This document shows, piece by piece, positions 7,659 to 33,402 of a stretch of 49,660 nt of DNA. The DNA comes from an uncultured archaeon (GTDB taxonomy: Archaea; Aenigmatarchaeota; Aenigmatarchaeia; CG10238-14): assembly GCA_964392445.1 (NCBI GenBank), contig CAYMPD010000006.1:1-49660 (forward strand), given 5' to 3'. Both the position numbers and the translations under genes were made by a program. Positions within the stretch are counted from its first letter, which is position 1. Every line of letters starts with the position of its first letter. A model generated the notes under the pieces. The model was given only the letters and a program-made list of their open reading frames with translations, made no database searches and was not told the DNA's origin.

Positions 7659-8372
7659 ATGCAAGTCGTAATATTATGTGGGGGTAAGGGAACAAGACTG
7701 TTACCAAAGACAGAGAAAGTTCCTAAACCACTAATTTCTGTGGGTAGTAAACCAATACTTTGGCATCTAATGAAGGTTTATTCAAGTTATGGACATAATG
7801 ATTTTGTTCTCTGTTTAGGGTATCTGGGAGATAAAATAAAGGAATACTTTCGGGATCCTGATAATGTTGAGAAAGATTGGAAAATTACTTTCGTTGATAC
7901 AGGTTTGGAGAGCAGTAAAGGTGAAAGGCTAAGAAGAATCAAGGATTATATTAAATCTGAGAACTTCTTGGTTTCTTATGGTGATGATTTATCTGACGTT
8001 AATATTGAGGAATTGGTGAAATTTCATAAAAAGAACAAAAAAATAGCAACTTTAACGGCTATAAATCCCGTTTATGACTATGGAGTTCTTCAAATGAATG
8101 GCAATAATGAGATAATAGGATTTAAGGAAAAACCTAAACTTGATCATTGGATTAATGCCGGGTTCTTTGTTTTTAATAGAAAGATATTCGATTATTTGAA
8201 AGAAGGATGGGATTTAGAAAAAGAAATATTCACTAATCTTTCAAAAGATAGACAACTTTCAGCTTTTAAACATACAGGTTTTTGGAAATCAATGAATACA
8301 ATAAAGGATTCCATAGAATTGAATGAGATGTGGGAAACTAGTGATCTTAAGAAGATACTTTGGAAGTGTTAG
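7659..8372 (+). CDS. rfbF: Glucose-1-phosphate cytidylyltransferase-like nucleotidyltransferase
   Basis: ILCGGKGTRL, PKPL..VG.KPILWH.MK.YS.YG.NDF.LCLGY, INAGFFV, GFWKSMNT. Confidence 0.8.
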   Translation: MQVVILCGGKGTRLLPKTEKVPKPLISVGSKPILWHLMKVYSSYGHNDFVLCLGYLGDKIKEYFRDPDNVEKDWKITFVDTGLESSKGERLRRIKDYIKSENFLVSYGDDLSDVNIEELVKFHKKNKKIATLTAINPVYDYGVLQMNGNNEIIGFKEKPKLDHWINAGFFVFNRKIFDYLKEGWDLEKEIFTNLSKDRQLSAFKHTGFWKSMNTIKDSIELNEMWETSDLKKILWKC

Positions 8373-9336
8373 TAAAATATTGTTCATACCATTTGATTGT
8401 TCTTTTTAGACCTTCATCCAAGGGGACTTCCGGTTCCCATCTTAGTATTTTCTTGGCTTTTTTACTGGAAAGGTATTGTTCATCTATTTCTGCATGTGGC
8501 TTTTTCTTACCTTTAACTTCTGCTTCGATTTTTTTCCCAGATACTTTTATGATTTTGTTAACTAGGTCAAGTATGTTGATAGGAGAATTGCTACCGAAAT
8601 TGAAAGCATCACCTTTTACAGATTTTTTGTTTACGTTTTCTGCTAGAGTAAGGTAAGCGTTGACAACATCTTCTATGTATATGAAGTCTCTTACGGGTGT
8701 ACCATCACTTCTTATGACTGGGCTTCTTTTGAAGATAACTGCTTTAACTGTTTCCGGTATTATTCTTGAGAAATTAAGATCTCCTCCCCCGTAAATATTG
8801 CAACATCTTGTAATACCAATCGGTAAACCATAAGTCACAGAATAAGTCCTTGCTAACATATCTGCACAGGCTTTGGAAGCATCATAAGGGTAACTTGCAT
8901 TAAGTGGGTGTTCTTCTGTTATTGGTAATTCAGATGGTTCGCCATAGACTTTATCAGTCGAAGTTATTACTAGTCTTTCTAATGTCTCACATTTTCTCGC
9001 CACTTCAAGAATATTCCATGTTCCCTCGATGTTTGTTTTAAACGTTGGGATTGGATTTCGATTGGCTATGGTGACTATCGGTTGTGCGGCTACATGTAAA
9101 CAAGTATCTATTTCGTATTCGTTGAATATTCTTCTTACTGAGTTATAATCGACTATATCTCCTCTTGCAGCTTTTATTTTGGGATAAGTTCCATTGTAGA
9201 ATAAGGGTGAACTGGGAAAGTGATCTCTGATTAATACAACAACATTAGCTTTTTTTTCAACTAAATTTTTGGTCAGCCAAGAGCCTACAAATCCTGTTGC
9301 TCCTGTTATTAAGACATTTTTTTCTTCCCATTTCAT
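8347..9336 (-). CDS. CDP-glucose 4,6-dehydratase-like extended SDR
   Basis: W..K.VLITGATGFVGSWL, AAQPIV, TSTDKVY, YDASK (YxxxK), NIYGGGD. Confidence 0.75.
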   Translation of the reverse strand: MKWEEKNVLITGATGFVGSWLTKNLVEKKANVVVLIRDHFPSSPLFYNGTYPKIKAARGDIVDYNSVRRIFNEYEIDTCLHVAAQPIVTIANRNPIPTFKTNIEGTWNILEVARKCETLERLVITSTDKVYGEPSELPITEEHPLNASYPYDASKACADMLARTYSVTYGLPIGITRCCNIYGGGDLNFSRIIPETVKAVIFKRSPVIRSDGTPVRDFIYIEDVVNAYLTLAENVNKKSVKGDAFNFGSNSPINILDLVNKIIKVSGKKIEAEVKGKKKPHAEIDEQYLSSKKAKKILRWEPEVPLDEGLKRTIKWYEQYFTNTSKVSS

Positions 9337-9372
9337 TTTATCTCCTTTAGTAATGATTAGTTTGGAATATTT

Positions 9373-10185
9373 TTATTGTTTTATTTTTTTAATTTCTAAA
9401 TAAGGTACTTCTACCAATTCCTTGTATCTCTTGTAATTTTCAGAATGACCAAATTTACCATGTTCACCTAACATCTCGCCATGATCTGAAGTTATTACCA
9501 CAGTTTTCTTTATTTCTTGGATTAGTTTTGAAATATCCTTCAAGGCCAGAAGAAGATTTTTTTCATATTCCTCTCTCAATTTCTCTAAATTATATTTTTC
9601 TAATATGTAAACCATTTGGTTGGGATATGGAGTATTTAGAACCTCTCGAATTTTGTTTTTCAATTTTCTAGTAATATGGAATCTTTGTAGAATATCGCCA
9701 ATAAAAATTGTAATTGAATTCTCAGGAGCATTAGTTCGGGCTTTTGTGTTTATTCTAGATTCTGGTTCAGTTTCACTCAACTTAATATAGGGGAAATGGG
9801 GTTGCATATAATGTAAAACAAATCTTTTATCAGGGTATGAACTCCTAACTTTTAAGTAAGATTTGCTCACCTCTTCGGGCTTCACAGTTTTATTCTTATG
9901 ATCCCACCCAAAGTCCCAAACATCAACTACTTTATGGAAATTATTACTAGCTAATATACCATCAATTTTGACTTTAGAATTCAAGTAAGGGTTACCGGAT
10001 ATGTATACAATATCATCCCTGTAAACCTTAAAATTTTTCTTAAACCATTCAGTTGTAGCTCGACCTAAGCTTTCTTTTTTTTTGAGCTTACCTTTGAAAA
10101 AATCTTTATAATTTTTTTTAAAATAGTCATACCTGCAAGCATCCAGAATTATAAGTACATCCCAATCCTGTTCAGCTATACTCAT
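9373..10185 (-). CDS. Alkaline phosphatase/sulfatase superfamily protein (soluble)
   Basis: LDACRYD, ATTEW, HYMQPHFPY, TSDHGEMLGE..GH metal-binding motifs. Confidence 0.7.
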   Translation of the reverse strand: MSIAEQDWDVLIILDACRYDYFKKNYKDFFKGKLKKKESLGRATTEWFKKNFKVYRDDIVYISGNPYLNSKVKIDGILASNNFHKVVDVWDFGWDHKNKTVKPEEVSKSYLKVRSSYPDKRFVLHYMQPHFPYIKLSETEPESRINTKARTNAPENSITIFIGDILQRFHITRKLKNKIREVLNTPYPNQMVYILEKYNLEKLREEYEKNLLLALKDISKLIQEIKKTVVITSDHGEMLGEHGKFGHSENYKRYKELVEVPYLEIKKIKQ

Positions 10186-29657: not shown

Positions 29658-30482
29658 TCATTTCCCTGTATCGTGGTAATAGATATCGGAATTTGCACTC
29701 ACATAATAGTCATAATTTATTTCGACTAAAATATCCGTTGGTACCTCATCACTCCCTGCTTTGTCAATGGTACAATAAGTTTCAAACTGATTGTTAATCA
29801 ATTCCACATCTCCACTTTCTTCACAGTTAAGATTATTTGGTCTGAGACTTACTCTATTATTTTGAAGATGTCCCTTTCCGTTATTTTTAATTGTTAATTT
29901 AACTTCTGGGAATTCGATAAACTCAACTGTTTCTATATCAATGTTGACTGGCCCTAAGGAACTTTTTTCCACTGTAAGTCCCCTCCCAGATAAAGTTTCA
30001 TCTATAAGCGCTTGGTCACCACTATCCACAACTCTATCATATTCACTTTGACTTAACCAGGAGAAAACACCTCTGAATACTGTACCGTAATCAAACTCAT
30101 ATCTAACTTCAACAGGGTAAGTTATGTCGAATTCATATCCTGAAGTACCGGGTGATGTAACTTTCCATCTTTTCATTACTTCTTGACCTGGTTTAATAGA
30201 AAAACTATGTTGACGATTTGAGGGATCATTAAATTGCCAATCACTACCTAATCCAATTAGTCTAGCAGTACCTCCATCTACAATTGCACCACCGTCGTTT
30301 CTAAAAACAGCAGTTAAAGTAACAGGTCTGCCATTTCTAACAGGCTGACCTTGAGTACCAATAGTCACAGGACCAAAGTTTGAAATCGTTATAGAAGGTG
30401 CTCCACCTCCCCCACCTCCAACAGTACATCCAGAAATTACAACCACACCTAAAACCAAAAGAACCATTAACAATTTTTTCAT
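29658..30482 (-). CDS. Secreted lipoprotein (lipobox ISG/C) with beta-rich surface domain
   Basis: MKKLLMVLLVLGVVVISGC followed by a poly-Gly linker; SD GGAGGT. Confidence 0.7.
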   Translation of the reverse strand: MKKLLMVLLVLGVVVISGCTVGGGGGGAPSITISNFGPVTIGTQGQPVRNGRPVTLTAVFRNDGGAIVDGGTARLIGLGSDWQFNDPSNRQHSFSIKPGQEVMKRWKVTSPGTSGYEFDITYPVEVRYEFDYGTVFRGVFSWLSQSEYDRVVDSGDQALIDETLSGRGLTVEKSSLGPVNIDIETVEFIEFPEVKLTIKNNGKGHLQNNRVSLRPNNLNCEESGDVELINNQFETYCTIDKAGSDEVPTDILVEINYDYYVSANSDIYYHDTGK

Positions 30483-30543
30483 TTAACCTCCCTCTACAAT
30501 TATTATTGATATATATCTATTTTAATTTTCCCTCTTTTTAAGT

Positions 30544-31206
30544 TTAGTACGGGACCAGTTTAGTATTAGTTTTGCCAATTATTAAACTCATTAAAAGACT
30601 CTCAGTGAGTAAAGAAATAAAAAATAAGGTCGCAGTATCAATCCAAAATCTTTTTGGGTATAGTTGTATTAATGTGTCTTGAGGACTAAAAGTCCAGAAA
30701 CCTTGAGGGAATAATATTTCATGAAATTTAAGGAAAAGGAAATCAAAATTAAGGAAAATTAGTACCAGGATCAAAAGTACAGTCCCAGAAGTAATTAGAA
30801 AATCAAGAAAAATGTAGTGAACTAATTGATAGTTCTCTCCACCCGTCAAAGTAAATAAAAATACTGAGATAGCAAACAACACCAAACTTATTCCTCTAAT
30901 TAAATTCAGTTTTTTAGTTAGAACCCTAACATCATTCAAGTGCCGAATTTCTCTTTGTGCGAATAATCCAGAGTTTTCCAAATTAGAAACATCATCCATA
31001 TTTTTGACATATCTCAGAACGTTTTCACTCAATTCCAGTCTTTCTTCATCTGAAAATATAGTAGATTCAGGAAAATTTTCTTTTGAATACTCCCATTTTA
31101 GGTAGATGGGGTTGAGGAATAGTAATGTGTTACAAGAAAACATAATTATAGGAATTACTAGGATGATTATCGCTCCCAGAATTTTTGTTATCACCCTCGT
31201 TTCCAT
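30544..31206 (-). CDS. DUF1461/TIGR01906 membrane protein (Lit lipoprotein intramolecular transacylase-like)
   Basis: 4 TM helices; EIRHLNDVR, FLKFHEILF, W.F...D.LIQLYP..FW match the family pattern including both His residues. Confidence 0.75.
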   Translation of the reverse strand: METRVITKILGAIIILVIPIIMFSCNTLLFLNPIYLKWEYSKENFPESTIFSDEERLELSENVLRYVKNMDDVSNLENSGLFAQREIRHLNDVRVLTKKLNLIRGISLVLFAISVFLFTLTGGENYQLVHYIFLDFLITSGTVLLILVLIFLNFDFLFLKFHEILFPQGFWTFSPQDTLIQLYPKRFWIDTATLFFISLLTESLLMSLIIGKTNTKLVPY

Positions 31207-31242
31207 AAACTAGTTTATATTTTCTCAAGTAATAATTATTTC

Positions 31243-32019
31243 ATGTCTTTAACAGACTTCTTTCAAAAGTACTTTATCCAGCCAATCAATCTTGGTACAG
31301 GCTATAATCCCATTAACACCTTTGCTTATGCTTTACTCTTCGTAGTTGTCACTTACTTAGTCTATGAATTCCTAAAAAAACTTAAGATAAAACCAGATCA
31401 AGCATTCGTGTTGGCAATAATACCTTGGGTGATATTCGGGATTTTTTTAAGGGTTATGGAAGATTCGGGTTTGATAAAAAGTAAGCTCTTTGTCACACCA
31501 AACATATGGTTATTATTCACTTTTTTGATAGCTTTGGGTTTATTCTTTTCAAAGTTTATAGAGAAGAAATATAAGATACCCTACTTTAAGTTCATTTTTA
31601 TTTCGGGACTAATGGGTGTTGGGATATTAATACCTTTTTTGAAGATTAGAAACTTTGAAGGATTTTTGTACACGTTTTTATGGTTTATACCGTGGCTGAT
31701 ACTCTCGAGAGTTATTCGATGGTCAAAGGAAAACAAGTTTGTGACATCGGCTCAGTTGTTTGACGCTACTGCAACTTTTGTCTCACTTCAATATTTTGGG
31801 TATTTTGAGCAGCATGTTTTACCTAGATTTATTATTGAATTAACTGGAATACCGTTTTCTTTTGTTATTGTTAAACTTATTGTAGTTGTGGTTATTCTGA
31901 AAACTCTGGACAAATATTCGGATGATAAAGAATTTGCTAGTTACTTGAAGATTGTTATAGGACTTCTTGGTTTTATTACTGGGTTTAGGGATTTGTTAAG
32001 GTTGGTTATGTTTGTTTAG
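31243..32019 (+). CDS. DUF63 family membrane protein
   Basis: GYNPINT..YA, LRVMEDSG, QLFDATATF, YFEQHVLPR, LGFITGFRDLLR. Confidence 0.75.
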   Translation: MSLTDFFQKYFIQPINLGTGYNPINTFAYALLFVVVTYLVYEFLKKLKIKPDQAFVLAIIPWVIFGIFLRVMEDSGLIKSKLFVTPNIWLLFTFLIALGLFFSKFIEKKYKIPYFKFIFISGLMGVGILIPFLKIRNFEGFLYTFLWFIPWLILSRVIRWSKENKFVTSAQLFDATATFVSLQYFGYFEQHVLPRFIIELTGIPFSFVIVKLIVVVVILKTLDKYSDDKEFASYLKIVIGLLGFITGFRDLLRLVMFV

Positions 32020-32023
32020 ATAA

Positions 32024-32230
32024 GTGATTGTTAAACTGGTAGTTGATTTTATGATAGATAAGAAAGAATTTGGAAATGATTTAACAGAGCTCAAATGTCC
32101 GTGCGGTGGGATAATGAAACAGGTTAAAGTAAGACTTTATGGGCATTCAGTTAGGGGTTGGAAGTGTAAAAAATGTGGAGAATTAACAGTGGATTCCATG
32201 GAATCTGATAGAGTTAGACAGCAGAAATAA
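32024..32230 (+). CDS. Small zinc-ribbon protein (CPC...CKKC)
   Basis: KCPCGG.M and GWKCKKCGE; alternative ATG at 32051. Confidence 0.55.
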   Translation: MIVKLVVDFMIDKKEFGNDLTELKCPCGGIMKQVKVRLYGHSVRGWKCKKCGELTVDSMESDRVRQQK

Positions 32231-32236
32231 TAACCA

Positions 32237-33355
32237 TCACTTAGCATTAATCTCAACATTACTTATAACAAAATTACCGTCAGTAGCCTCAAAAGTAACA
32301 GTATTCTTTCCCCTATCCACATAATCCTTGTTAAAACTAACAGTCTTTGTCTCACCGACAGAATAGGATTGAAATGCTTCAGTTGGATGTTTATGTCCAG
32401 CGGTATCAGTTATTGTAACTAGAAGGTTACCTTGATAATCAGCATCTGTAATACGAAAACTAACTTCTCCCTCCAAATTATCATTCCAAGAATTACCAAC
32501 AGTAAAGTCAAATGATCTGGATTTTGTTGCTTTCTCCTCTCTTATTATCGTCAAAACAGCATCAGTAATATCATAAGTAGATCCACTCTCGGCTTTAAAA
32601 GATATTGAATTAAGTCCATGAGTTAAACCAACATCATATTGGTCAAAAGACTGGTAAAAATTAAGACTGGGCTGTCCTTTGTAAATTCTATGACCGTTAA
32701 TTGAGATAATTAAATCCCCATCTCCCGATTGCTCTTTGAGACGGAATGAAATTTCTCCATTCCTAAATCTACTCAACTCCTCAGGATAAACATGAAATTC
32801 CTCCACTTTTTGCAAATTTCCATAAAAATTAACTCCAAATTCAATCTTATCCAATTCATAATAAGGTTTAGAAAACAAATTCCAACCAGAGCTAGAAGTC
32901 TTTACCTCAATCACATTATAATCTTTTAAAAATCCTTTGTCTACTGGTATCTCAACCTTTCCAACAGTAGTCTCTTGATTAAAAACCTCGTTACCATTCA
33001 AAATAACAACCAATTCTCCCTTCTGATTAGTTTCTCTAACATAAACTGTCATAAATCCCCCAGTAACCATAGACATGTCTTGATCCAAAGTGACAGTCAT
33101 TGAAAAGTCATCTTTACCCTTCACCTCAATATCATTTTTTGTTTCAATGACTTCAGAACCGACAGCATAACTAACTTTAAAATCACCAATTGATTCTTGT
33201 CTGGGGACGTCTTTTGGAAACATTCCAATTGAGAACGGGTTTTCTATCAGCACTTCAGTCCCGTTAACCCCATTTTCACCTGGTTCCCCCCAAGCTACGA
33301 GTAGAATACCAATCATAAGTAGCCCTGCTAACAGAACAAATATAAATTCATCCAT
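32237..33355 (-). CDS. Membrane-anchored, beta-rich surface protein
   Basis: N-terminal hydrophobic anchor MDEFIFVLLAGLLMIGILLVAWG with SD GGTG; remainder polar and beta-strand-like. Confidence 0.6.
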   Translation of the reverse strand: MDEFIFVLLAGLLMIGILLVAWGEPGENGVNGTEVLIENPFSIGMFPKDVPRQESIGDFKVSYAVGSEVIETKNDIEVKGKDDFSMTVTLDQDMSMVTGGFMTVYVRETNQKGELVVILNGNEVFNQETTVGKVEIPVDKGFLKDYNVIEVKTSSSGWNLFSKPYYELDKIEFGVNFYGNLQKVEEFHVYPEELSRFRNGEISFRLKEQSGDGDLIISINGHRIYKGQPSLNFYQSFDQYDVGLTHGLNSISFKAESGSTYDITDAVLTIIREEKATKSRSFDFTVGNSWNDNLEGEVSFRITDADYQGNLLVTITDTAGHKHPTEAFQSYSVGETKTVSFNKDYVDRGKNTVTFEATDGNFVISNVEINAK

Positions 33356-33402
33356 GATTACACCTAAAAACACTTTTGTTTTTGAACTAATTATATTTTA
33401 TC

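Follow-up and report, generated by a model that had tools for sequence, protein, structure and literature searches.

A Lit-family membrane protein encoded between an AliA-family protein and a lipoprotein in an aenigmatarchaeon: a candidate for N-terminal modification of archaeal lipoproteins

The window analysed here, a stretch of 49,660 nucleotides that makes up contig CAYMPD010000006.1 of assembly GCA_964392445.1, comes from an uncultured archaeon of the Aenigmatarchaeota. It carries three adjacent genes, which encode a lipobox protein of 274 aa (29658..30482, minus strand), a membrane protein of the Lit family of 220 aa (30544..31206, minus strand) and a protein of the AliA family of 258 aa (31243..32019, plus strand). 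The first was recognised from the list of open reading frames (ORFs) and its sequence, the second from PF07314 and TIGR01906 and the third from a profile search with PF01889. All three ORFs lie where the initial annotation had placed them, with exactly 36 bp between the start codon of the Lit gene and the AliA gene. We tentatively propose, with somewhat less than even confidence, that the Lit homologue modifies the N-terminus of proteins lipidated by AliA, using an ester-bound acyl chain from scavenged lipids. Standing between AliA and a lipoprotein gene, Lit is a concrete candidate for a post-lipidation step in archaea, and it raises a chemical question: does an archaeal lipoprotein anchor carry an ester-bound acyl chain? 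To our knowledge, AliA is the first enzyme of archaeal lipoprotein maturation to be identified, and it was so only recently. The literature searched (for DUF1461, and for Lit together with archaea) contained no description of an archaeal Lit, nor of the pairing of Lit with AliA and a lipoprotein, which had been put forward as new.

Regarding the 220-aa protein, its assignment to DUF1461/TIGR01906 is borne out by two profiles above their cut-offs, PF07314 (E 4.7e-27, 95.6 bits, cut-off 24) and TIGR01906 (96.9 bits, cut-off 74.8). The Lit family is predominantly bacterial. The window protein aligns end to end with Bacillus cereus Lit (7B0O; phmmer, E 1e-7), and the two motifs that had been read as the histidine motifs of Lit, RHLNDV and KFHEILF, are both present and indeed correspond to them, H89 and H162 aligning to His85 and His153 of the B. 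cereus enzyme. In the latter, H85, V89, F149, H153, F157 and W162 are highly conserved, and Asp88 and Lys90 (often Arg) support the active site (PMC8275575). All six highly conserved residues are kept in the window protein, as are the equivalents of D88 and K90 (Arg at K90); Val89, Phe149, Phe157, Trp162, Asp88 and Lys90 correspond to V93, F158, F166, W171, D92 and R94, and the residues of the cage are D92, V93, R94, F158, F161, F166, W171 and F173. Among 20 archaeal homologues H162 and F166 are invariant, and H89 is found in 19 of them.

An AlphaFold2 model of the Lit homologue, built on the 20 archaeal homologues, reached a pLDDT of 92.6 and a pTM of 0.86 and predicts four transmembrane (TM) helices and an extracytoplasmic cap, an arrangement unique to Lit. 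Foldseek matched it to 7b0p_A (TM-score 0.79, root-mean-square deviation (rmsd) 2.9 Å), and among the PDB entries nothing besides Lit was found at E<0.1. Superposition on the B. cereus structure 7B0O, which had been proposed for this protein, gave in VIA a Z of 20.1 and an rmsd of 2.4 Å over 210 residues, the runners-up being unrelated helical bundles with a Z of 11 or less. In the model, the histidine pair is situated in a Lit-like active site. The window protein therefore resembles the Lit of B. cereus and Enterococcus faecalis (PDB 7B0O-7B0R) in family, in the fold of four TM helices plus cap, in the His-His dyad, in the Phe/Trp cage and in length. With fold, outward cap, dyad and aromatic cage predicted to be intact, the known job of the family is thus the most likely one, and the characterised activity of the family concerns lipoprotein N-termini only (PMC8275575, PMC12345273).

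The divergent gene on the other side of the 36 bp matches PF01889 with E 8.8e-59 over profile positions 2-269 of 269, and it is the only gene of this family in the genome. The initial annotation had tentatively taken DUF63 as the family of the Haloferax AliA and AliB proteins, and this proved right: AliA is HVO_2859 (arCOG02177) and AliB is HVO_2611 (arCOG02178) (PMC12462473), the annotation given to HVO_2859 is that of a DUF63 family protein (PMC9426492), PF01889 matches Haloferax (Hfx.) volcanii as well as M. jannaschii and M. acetivorans among our control genomes, and the precomputed Pfam label of PF01889 is AliA_AliB. Haloferax AliA is needed for thioether-linked archaeol on lipoproteins (PMC13631571), and Hfx. 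volcanii AliA is the only one for which thioether lipidation of lipobox cysteines has been shown (PMC12462473, PMC13631571). We regard the 258-aa protein as a putative prolipoprotein lipid transferase. The published pocket signature consists of two conserved arginines in AliA and of histidines in AliB; in 19 sequences from the order and from Nanoclepta, R70 and R249 are the only invariant arginines, and these two may correspond to the pair of the AliA signature. Like Haloferax AliA, the window protein belongs to PF01889, is present in a single copy and has a predicted lipoprotein gene next to it. Unlike Haloferax, which makes its archaeol itself, the window organism would have to use acquired lipids. 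The published neighbours of aliA (IMPase, GldA, SpoIIM) were not seen at the window locus, where AliA has as neighbours a lipoprotein with tandem immunoglobulin (Ig)-like domains, a pilin-like protein and, in some genera, Lit.

The 274-aa protein begins with MKKLLMVLLVLGVVVISG/C, which agrees with the published lipobox [LVI][ASTVI][GAS]C. Its signal peptide comprises residues 1-18, with a Lys-rich n-region and a hydrophobic h-region that lead to I-S-G-C19. In 13 orthologues G18 and C19 are invariant, the Thr that follows is nearly so, and C220 and C237 are also invariant. The lipobox is thus no chance match, since its G-C is invariant across the orthologues, and the reading of this gene as a secreted protein with an ISG/C lipobox stands. 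The AlphaFold2 model (pLDDT 87.6) is all-beta, with two Ig-like beta-sandwich domains after a Gly-rich linker; its PDB matches were generic Ig-like ones only, and a match to PF10633 was weak. The protein is a surface protein and a conserved neighbour of AliA. A crude scan of the genome with a regular expression gave 9 lipobox candidates, 7 of them convincing. In another genome (G087), a protein that looks orthologous to the tandem-Ig lipoprotein and is encoded beside AliA (L068:5089-6078, plus strand) has L-T-G-H in place of L-x-G-C, and there the lipidated cysteine appears, from the sequence, to have been lost.

We then consider which lipids would be available. The genome of the window organism (1.215 Mb in 54 contigs, 94.9% complete, 0.37% contaminated) has no match to Lgt (PF01790), Lsp (PF01252), a PlsC-type acyltransferase (PF01553), geranylgeranylglyceryl phosphate (GGGP) synthase/PcrB (PF01884), a UbiA-family prenyltransferase (PF01040) or DUF1405/LhaT (PF07187), and in the control searches every family matched the expected reference genomes. 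Judged by its gene content, the cell appears to be unable to make ether or ester core lipids, in line with the literature on many DPANN lineages. Because the GGGP synthase, UbiA and PlsC genes are missing, the lipids are probably scavenged, and the premise of a lipid-scavenging cell therefore held in this genome, which is about 95% complete and is devoid of Lgt and Lsp as well. It has been proposed that some DPANN use bacterial-type lipids taken from their hosts (PMC11868695). Cyclopropane-fatty-acid synthase (PF02353), which we tried as an indicator of acyl lipids, proved uninformative, as the matches covered the methyltransferase core partially and 13 of 14 control genomes matched. The genome has no genes for the canonical supply of Lit substrate, a diacylglyceryl-Cys made by Lgt and processed by Lsp, and has AliA instead. 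This is one difference from B. cereus Lit: the host of the window protein is archaeal, without Lgt, Lsp or a diacylglycerol-lipid pathway, and therefore the canonical substrate is not obviously available.

Taking these data together, the locus would be the lipoprotein-lipidation corner of a small, lipid-auxotrophic archaeon of the DPANN type. AliA would act as the archaeal functional analogue of bacterial Lgt and would join an acquired glycerolipid by a thioether to the lipobox Cys19 of its neighbour and to other lipoproteins, after which a peptidase would cut off the signal peptide. The lipidated cysteine, now at the N-terminus, would then enter the outward-facing pocket of Lit, which would move an ester-bound acyl chain of the glyceryl moiety onto the free alpha-amino group; the product would be an N-acylated anchor of the lyso form. 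With no Lgt and no synthesis of ester or ether lipids, AliA would therefore have to load scavenged lipids with at least one ester-bound chain. That Lit works on what AliA makes, which lipid is involved and that an O-to-N transacylation takes place are all inferred. The presence of at least 7 convincing lipobox ORFs and of one AliA, together with the lack of Lgt, Lsp and LhaT in the genome, supports the proposal. If Lit has its canonical activity here, these DPANN cells must have ester lipids, a point of interest for the identity of their hosts and for the question of mixed membranes. Otherwise, the fold of Lit would serve a second chemistry.

The gene order also argues for a connection. The block TIGR00375, lipoprotein, Lit, AliA and p378 (a surface protein described below) is found in 7 genomes of three genera (g1, g3 and g10) and on 2 metagenomic contigs, which means that the adjacency of Lit and DUF63, noticed initially in one genome, occurs in 6 others. 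Within the block, the lowest identities are 25-27% (lipoprotein), 37-38% (Lit) and 47% (AliA), and the gap between Lit and the lipoprotein gene is 2-61 bp in the orthologous loci. Lit adjoins AliA in three of the six Lit-bearing genera and lies within 11 kb of it in five. In two of the latter (g8 and g29) the distance is 7-11 kb on the same contig, past the tRNA-intron endonuclease gene (EndA) and a GT2 gene, and in one genome of a further genus (G057, g7) Lit is on another contig than AliA. The chance of finding Lit this near AliA in one genome of 0.7-1.2 Mb is about 2-3%. In our opinion, it is reasonable to infer that Lit is functionally coupled to AliA and to the lipoprotein. Taking the sister family as the outgroup, the simplest reading is that Lit was relocated once, in the ancestor of g1, g3 and g10, into the spacer between AliA and the lipoprotein gene, the reverse direction being possible too. 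In the window's genus and two sister genera Lit would thus have come between both genes, in an operon-like arrangement with the lipoprotein.

Contamination was rejected as the source of the Lit gene. The 49.7-kb contig has archaeal genes on both sides of it, the archaeal genes of the contig including those for ribosomal S3Ae, S13/S15, EndA and Pelota, and the identical gene order in independent assemblies also speaks against it. Among the 371 genomes of the phylum, PF01889 (AliA) is present in 321, PF07314 (Lit) in 22 and PF01790 (Lgt) in 3, the last in none of the 22 genomes of the window's family; PF07187 (DUF1405) is found in none of the 118 genomes of the order. The 22 genomes with Lit are the window's own, 11 of the 22 relatives in its family and, in the sister family, 10 of the 11 genomes of genus g29. 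One genome of g29 (G102), which is among the three with Lgt, also carries Lit. When genome contigs were searched with the single Lit protein, no related locus was obtained, and an analogous search with AliA as query gave one congener metagenome-assembled genome and Nanoclepta only.

Nevertheless, a number of observations weigh against a Lit that acts as a transacylase on the products of AliA. Regarding the protein, it scored 32.6 bits with NF051877, the NCBIfam equivalog of Lit, and did not reach its cut-off of 400, and its identity to B. cereus Lit is 17-18%; by sequence comparison, it is a member of the family and not a close orthologue of the characterised enzymes. In a genome of the same genus (G052; L005:1399-2067, minus strand) a Tyr replaces the first catalytic His and the second is retained, and in B. 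cereus Lit all the H85 substitutions that could be expressed and assayed were essentially inactive. The homologues of genus g29 (L011-L013, L016, L018-L020, L022 and L023) have no equivalent of Trp162, showing F-V-K/R-x-N-F instead of F-P-x-G-N-W, with both histidines retained. Regarding the chemistry, Haloferax AliA attaches archaeol, whose two chains are ether-bound so that it offers no acyl group for transfer (PMC13631571), and in the window's genome neither a gene for ester lipids nor any direct sign of such lipids was found. Moreover, archaeal lipoproteins can mature without Lit: of the 371 genomes of the phylum, 349 lack it and 321 have AliA.

The gene order itself has points on this side. 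The deeper conserved unit is that of lipoprotein, AliA and p378 without Lit. Four genera of the window's family (g6, g7, g8 and g9) have it, as does g29 of the sister family. The adjacency of Lit and AliA is confined to three genera, lies inside a wider synteny with TIGR00375, HAD and RadA on one side and Pelota and EndA on the other, and could be a single passive event. An approximately unbiased test did not reject a tree in which all Lit genes of the order form one clade with their relatives from metagenomes (p = 0.315). Given this result and the synteny of the neighbourhood, the linked arrangements do not count as independent cases. Therefore, of the initial claim that the three genes converge on one process, the gene identities and the recurring order stood; to speak of a unit was too strong, as Lit is accessory and the conserved core does without it.

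The alternative that survives best is that Lit has no role in lipoproteins and remodels scavenged glycerolipids or lysolipids, or has some other task in the membrane, its adjacency to AliA being a by-product of synteny. We consider this rather unlikely, and still as something to be taken seriously. Stand-alone Lit genes in g8, g29 and G057 lie beside unrelated genes (pgk, top6A/B and others), and in two other lineages, where neither AliA nor Lgt is close by, Lit comes after an ABC ATPase gene. In another lineage, at L026:4238-6672 and on the contig of P0034, two distinct contigs that share this context, Lit overlaps the stop of a gene for a double-ABC ATPase of 586-588 aa, and the genes that follow encode an AsnC regulator, a GCD14-type methyltransferase and a beta-propeller protein. 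Furthermore, few members have been characterised among the 6777 representatives of the family that an exhaustive search collected (a word-indexed homologue search gave 7), monoolein head groups lie on both histidines in the crystal (PMC8275575), which means that free glycerolipids can enter the pocket, and an unrelated small membrane protein can fill the same slots as Lit. However, lipoproteins are the sole known target of the family, and across three genera the Lit gene stays between the gene for a lipid transferase and that for the partner lipoprotein, spaced as in an operon. Five of the six Lit-bearing genera keep it no more than 11 kb from AliA, and on a bacterial-type contig it directly adjoins Lgt.

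On this contig (L079:1762-9420; bacterial-type by LonA and H+-PPase), Lit (8001-8651) is directly upstream of Lgt (8662-9420), and the pair ends a copper cluster that consists of a CsoR-like repressor, a cupredoxin, a CopA-type ATPase, a DsbD-cupredoxin and a CopZ-like HMA protein. This suggests that lipidation and N-terminal remodelling are co-regulated there. Lit2 of Listeria and Enterococcus is copper-induced. The window locus is like L079 in that Lit stands beside an enzyme that S-lipidates the lipobox cysteine, an association now seen with both non-homologous transferases, Lgt and AliA. It differs in that there are no copper genes nearby and in that the gene partner of Lit is AliA and not Lgt, as it is in the bacterial pairing.

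The small membrane protein mentioned above has 122-149 aa, about four TM helices and a C-terminal N-C-M-N-C motif, with invariant E, E, E, R and Trp residues and no histidines. It matched no Pfam family and has no copy in the window's genome; copies are found at L062:5338-5718 (plus strand), L063:4124-4573 (minus strand) and L068:3853-4221 (minus strand). We rejected the idea that it is a degraded Lit, given an hhalign probability of 0.4% and the lack of histidines. It occupies the spacer between AliA and the lipoprotein gene in G056 and G058 (g7) and in G064-G066 (g9), and in G087 it abuts AliA. In three genera of the sister family (g30, g21 and g35) it lies just downstream of a pair of genes for proteins of 361 and 531 aa, probably top6A and top6B as judged by size and order only, and the Lit of g29 occupies the same place, downstream of the same pair. 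These flanking proteins are 86% and 71% identical, respectively, between G102 (g29) and G109 (g30). Within g7, G057 has Lit and lacks the small membrane protein, and the reverse is true for G056 and G058. In the order, 18 of the 118 genomes have the small membrane protein, 22 have Lit and none has both; the naive hypergeometric probability of zero overlap is 0.017, a value that ignores relatedness. This pattern could reflect displacement in situ by a protein of analogous function, or no more than two sites that tolerate insertions. A bolder form of our proposal is a hybrid pathway, in which AliA adds a lipid that bears an ester, a Lit derived from bacteria makes the lyso-form and the small membrane protein is its non-homologous substitute. 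We regard this combination as unlikely; if it were true, there would be ester or mixed ether/ester lipids in these membranes, perhaps from bacterial hosts.

A further alternative keeps the substrates and changes the chemistry: Lit would employ its His dyad to cap the N-terminus of ether-anchored cysteines by acyl or acetyl transfer, for instance from an external lipid-linked donor, as LhaT does. LhaT (YpjA, DUF1405) of Bacillus subtilis belongs to a family unrelated to Lit, uses acetyl-heptaprenylglycerol from PcrB and YvoF, is encoded beside lit in B. anthracis and has family members in Haloferax; if our proposal holds, Lit of the window would resemble it as an integral membrane protein that caps the alpha-amine of lipoproteins at the outer face. 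N-acetylation of an archaeal halocyanin on its diether-lipidated Cys has been reported (cited in PMC12462473), Bacillus has an extracellular acetyl donor that is lipid-linked and Haloferax has DUF1405 (PMC12345273), and archaeol is the lipid that Haloferax AliA places. Since DUF1405 is in neither the window's genome nor any of the order's 118 genomes, N-capping, if there is any, would call for a different enzyme. Nevertheless, the pocket of Lit fits an intramolecular shift with one substrate (PMC8275575) and intermolecular activity is known for no member of the family. Since the GGGP synthase/PcrB gene is missing, an acetyl-prenylglycerol donor would not be self-made, and across the phylum the majority of genomes lack Lit and DUF1405 alike. 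We consider N-capping from another donor to be quite improbable.

Finally, a Lit that is the decaying, functionless relic of an old gene transfer from bacteria is very hard to believe, because, in spite of its patchy distribution with many apparent losses, its fast change (within the genus 37-46% identity for Lit vs 58-66% for AliA) and the Tyr at the first catalytic His in G052, the reading frames are intact in 22 of 22 genomes, sequences that are only 21-43% identical show little or no variation at the catalytic and cage residues, and the fold is predicted with high confidence.

Elsewhere in the family, Lit is also found in fusion proteins of 311-714 aa (P0036, P0073, P0090, P0105, P0120, P0124, P0140 and P0144). 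The Lit domain is always C-terminal in them, and the N-terminal extensions, of about 75-480 residues, matched no Pfam family.

Regarding the other features of the locus, p378 (32237..33373, minus strand) encodes a single-pass surface protein of 378 aa, convergent with AliA, which matched no Pfam family and falls in Atlas clusters of archaea only with unknown function. Its position next to AliA is conserved in families f1 and f5. The orthologues open with K-G-Q-x-K-x-D-E-F followed by a TM helix, and this N-terminus looks like a class III (type IV prepilin-like) signal peptide. In the window, the listed GTG start leaves out the K-G-Q part, so that the start may be mis-set or the sequence may have diverged. 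Between p378 and AliA there is an ORF of 68 aa (32024-32230, plus strand) with two CxxC pairs, zinc-ribbon-like, which begins 4 bp past the AliA stop. It had no tblastn match in any related locus and is therefore outside the conserved unit, and may be no gene.

The 36 bp between the Lit and AliA genes (31207..31242) are AT-rich. They include TTTATATT, some 25 nt before the ATG of AliA, and, on the minus strand, AATAATTATT, some 25 nt before that of Lit. Two back-to-back promoters with near-leaderless mRNAs may fit this region, an assignment that can only be suggested because the whole genome is AT-rich. The spacer of 61 bp between the Lit and lipoprotein genes (30483..30543, minus strand) contains a GGAGG-like ribosome-binding site 5 nt ahead of the ATG and an AT-rich, TATA-like stretch. 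Thus, both genes may be co-transcribed, or the lipoprotein gene may have a promoter of its own.

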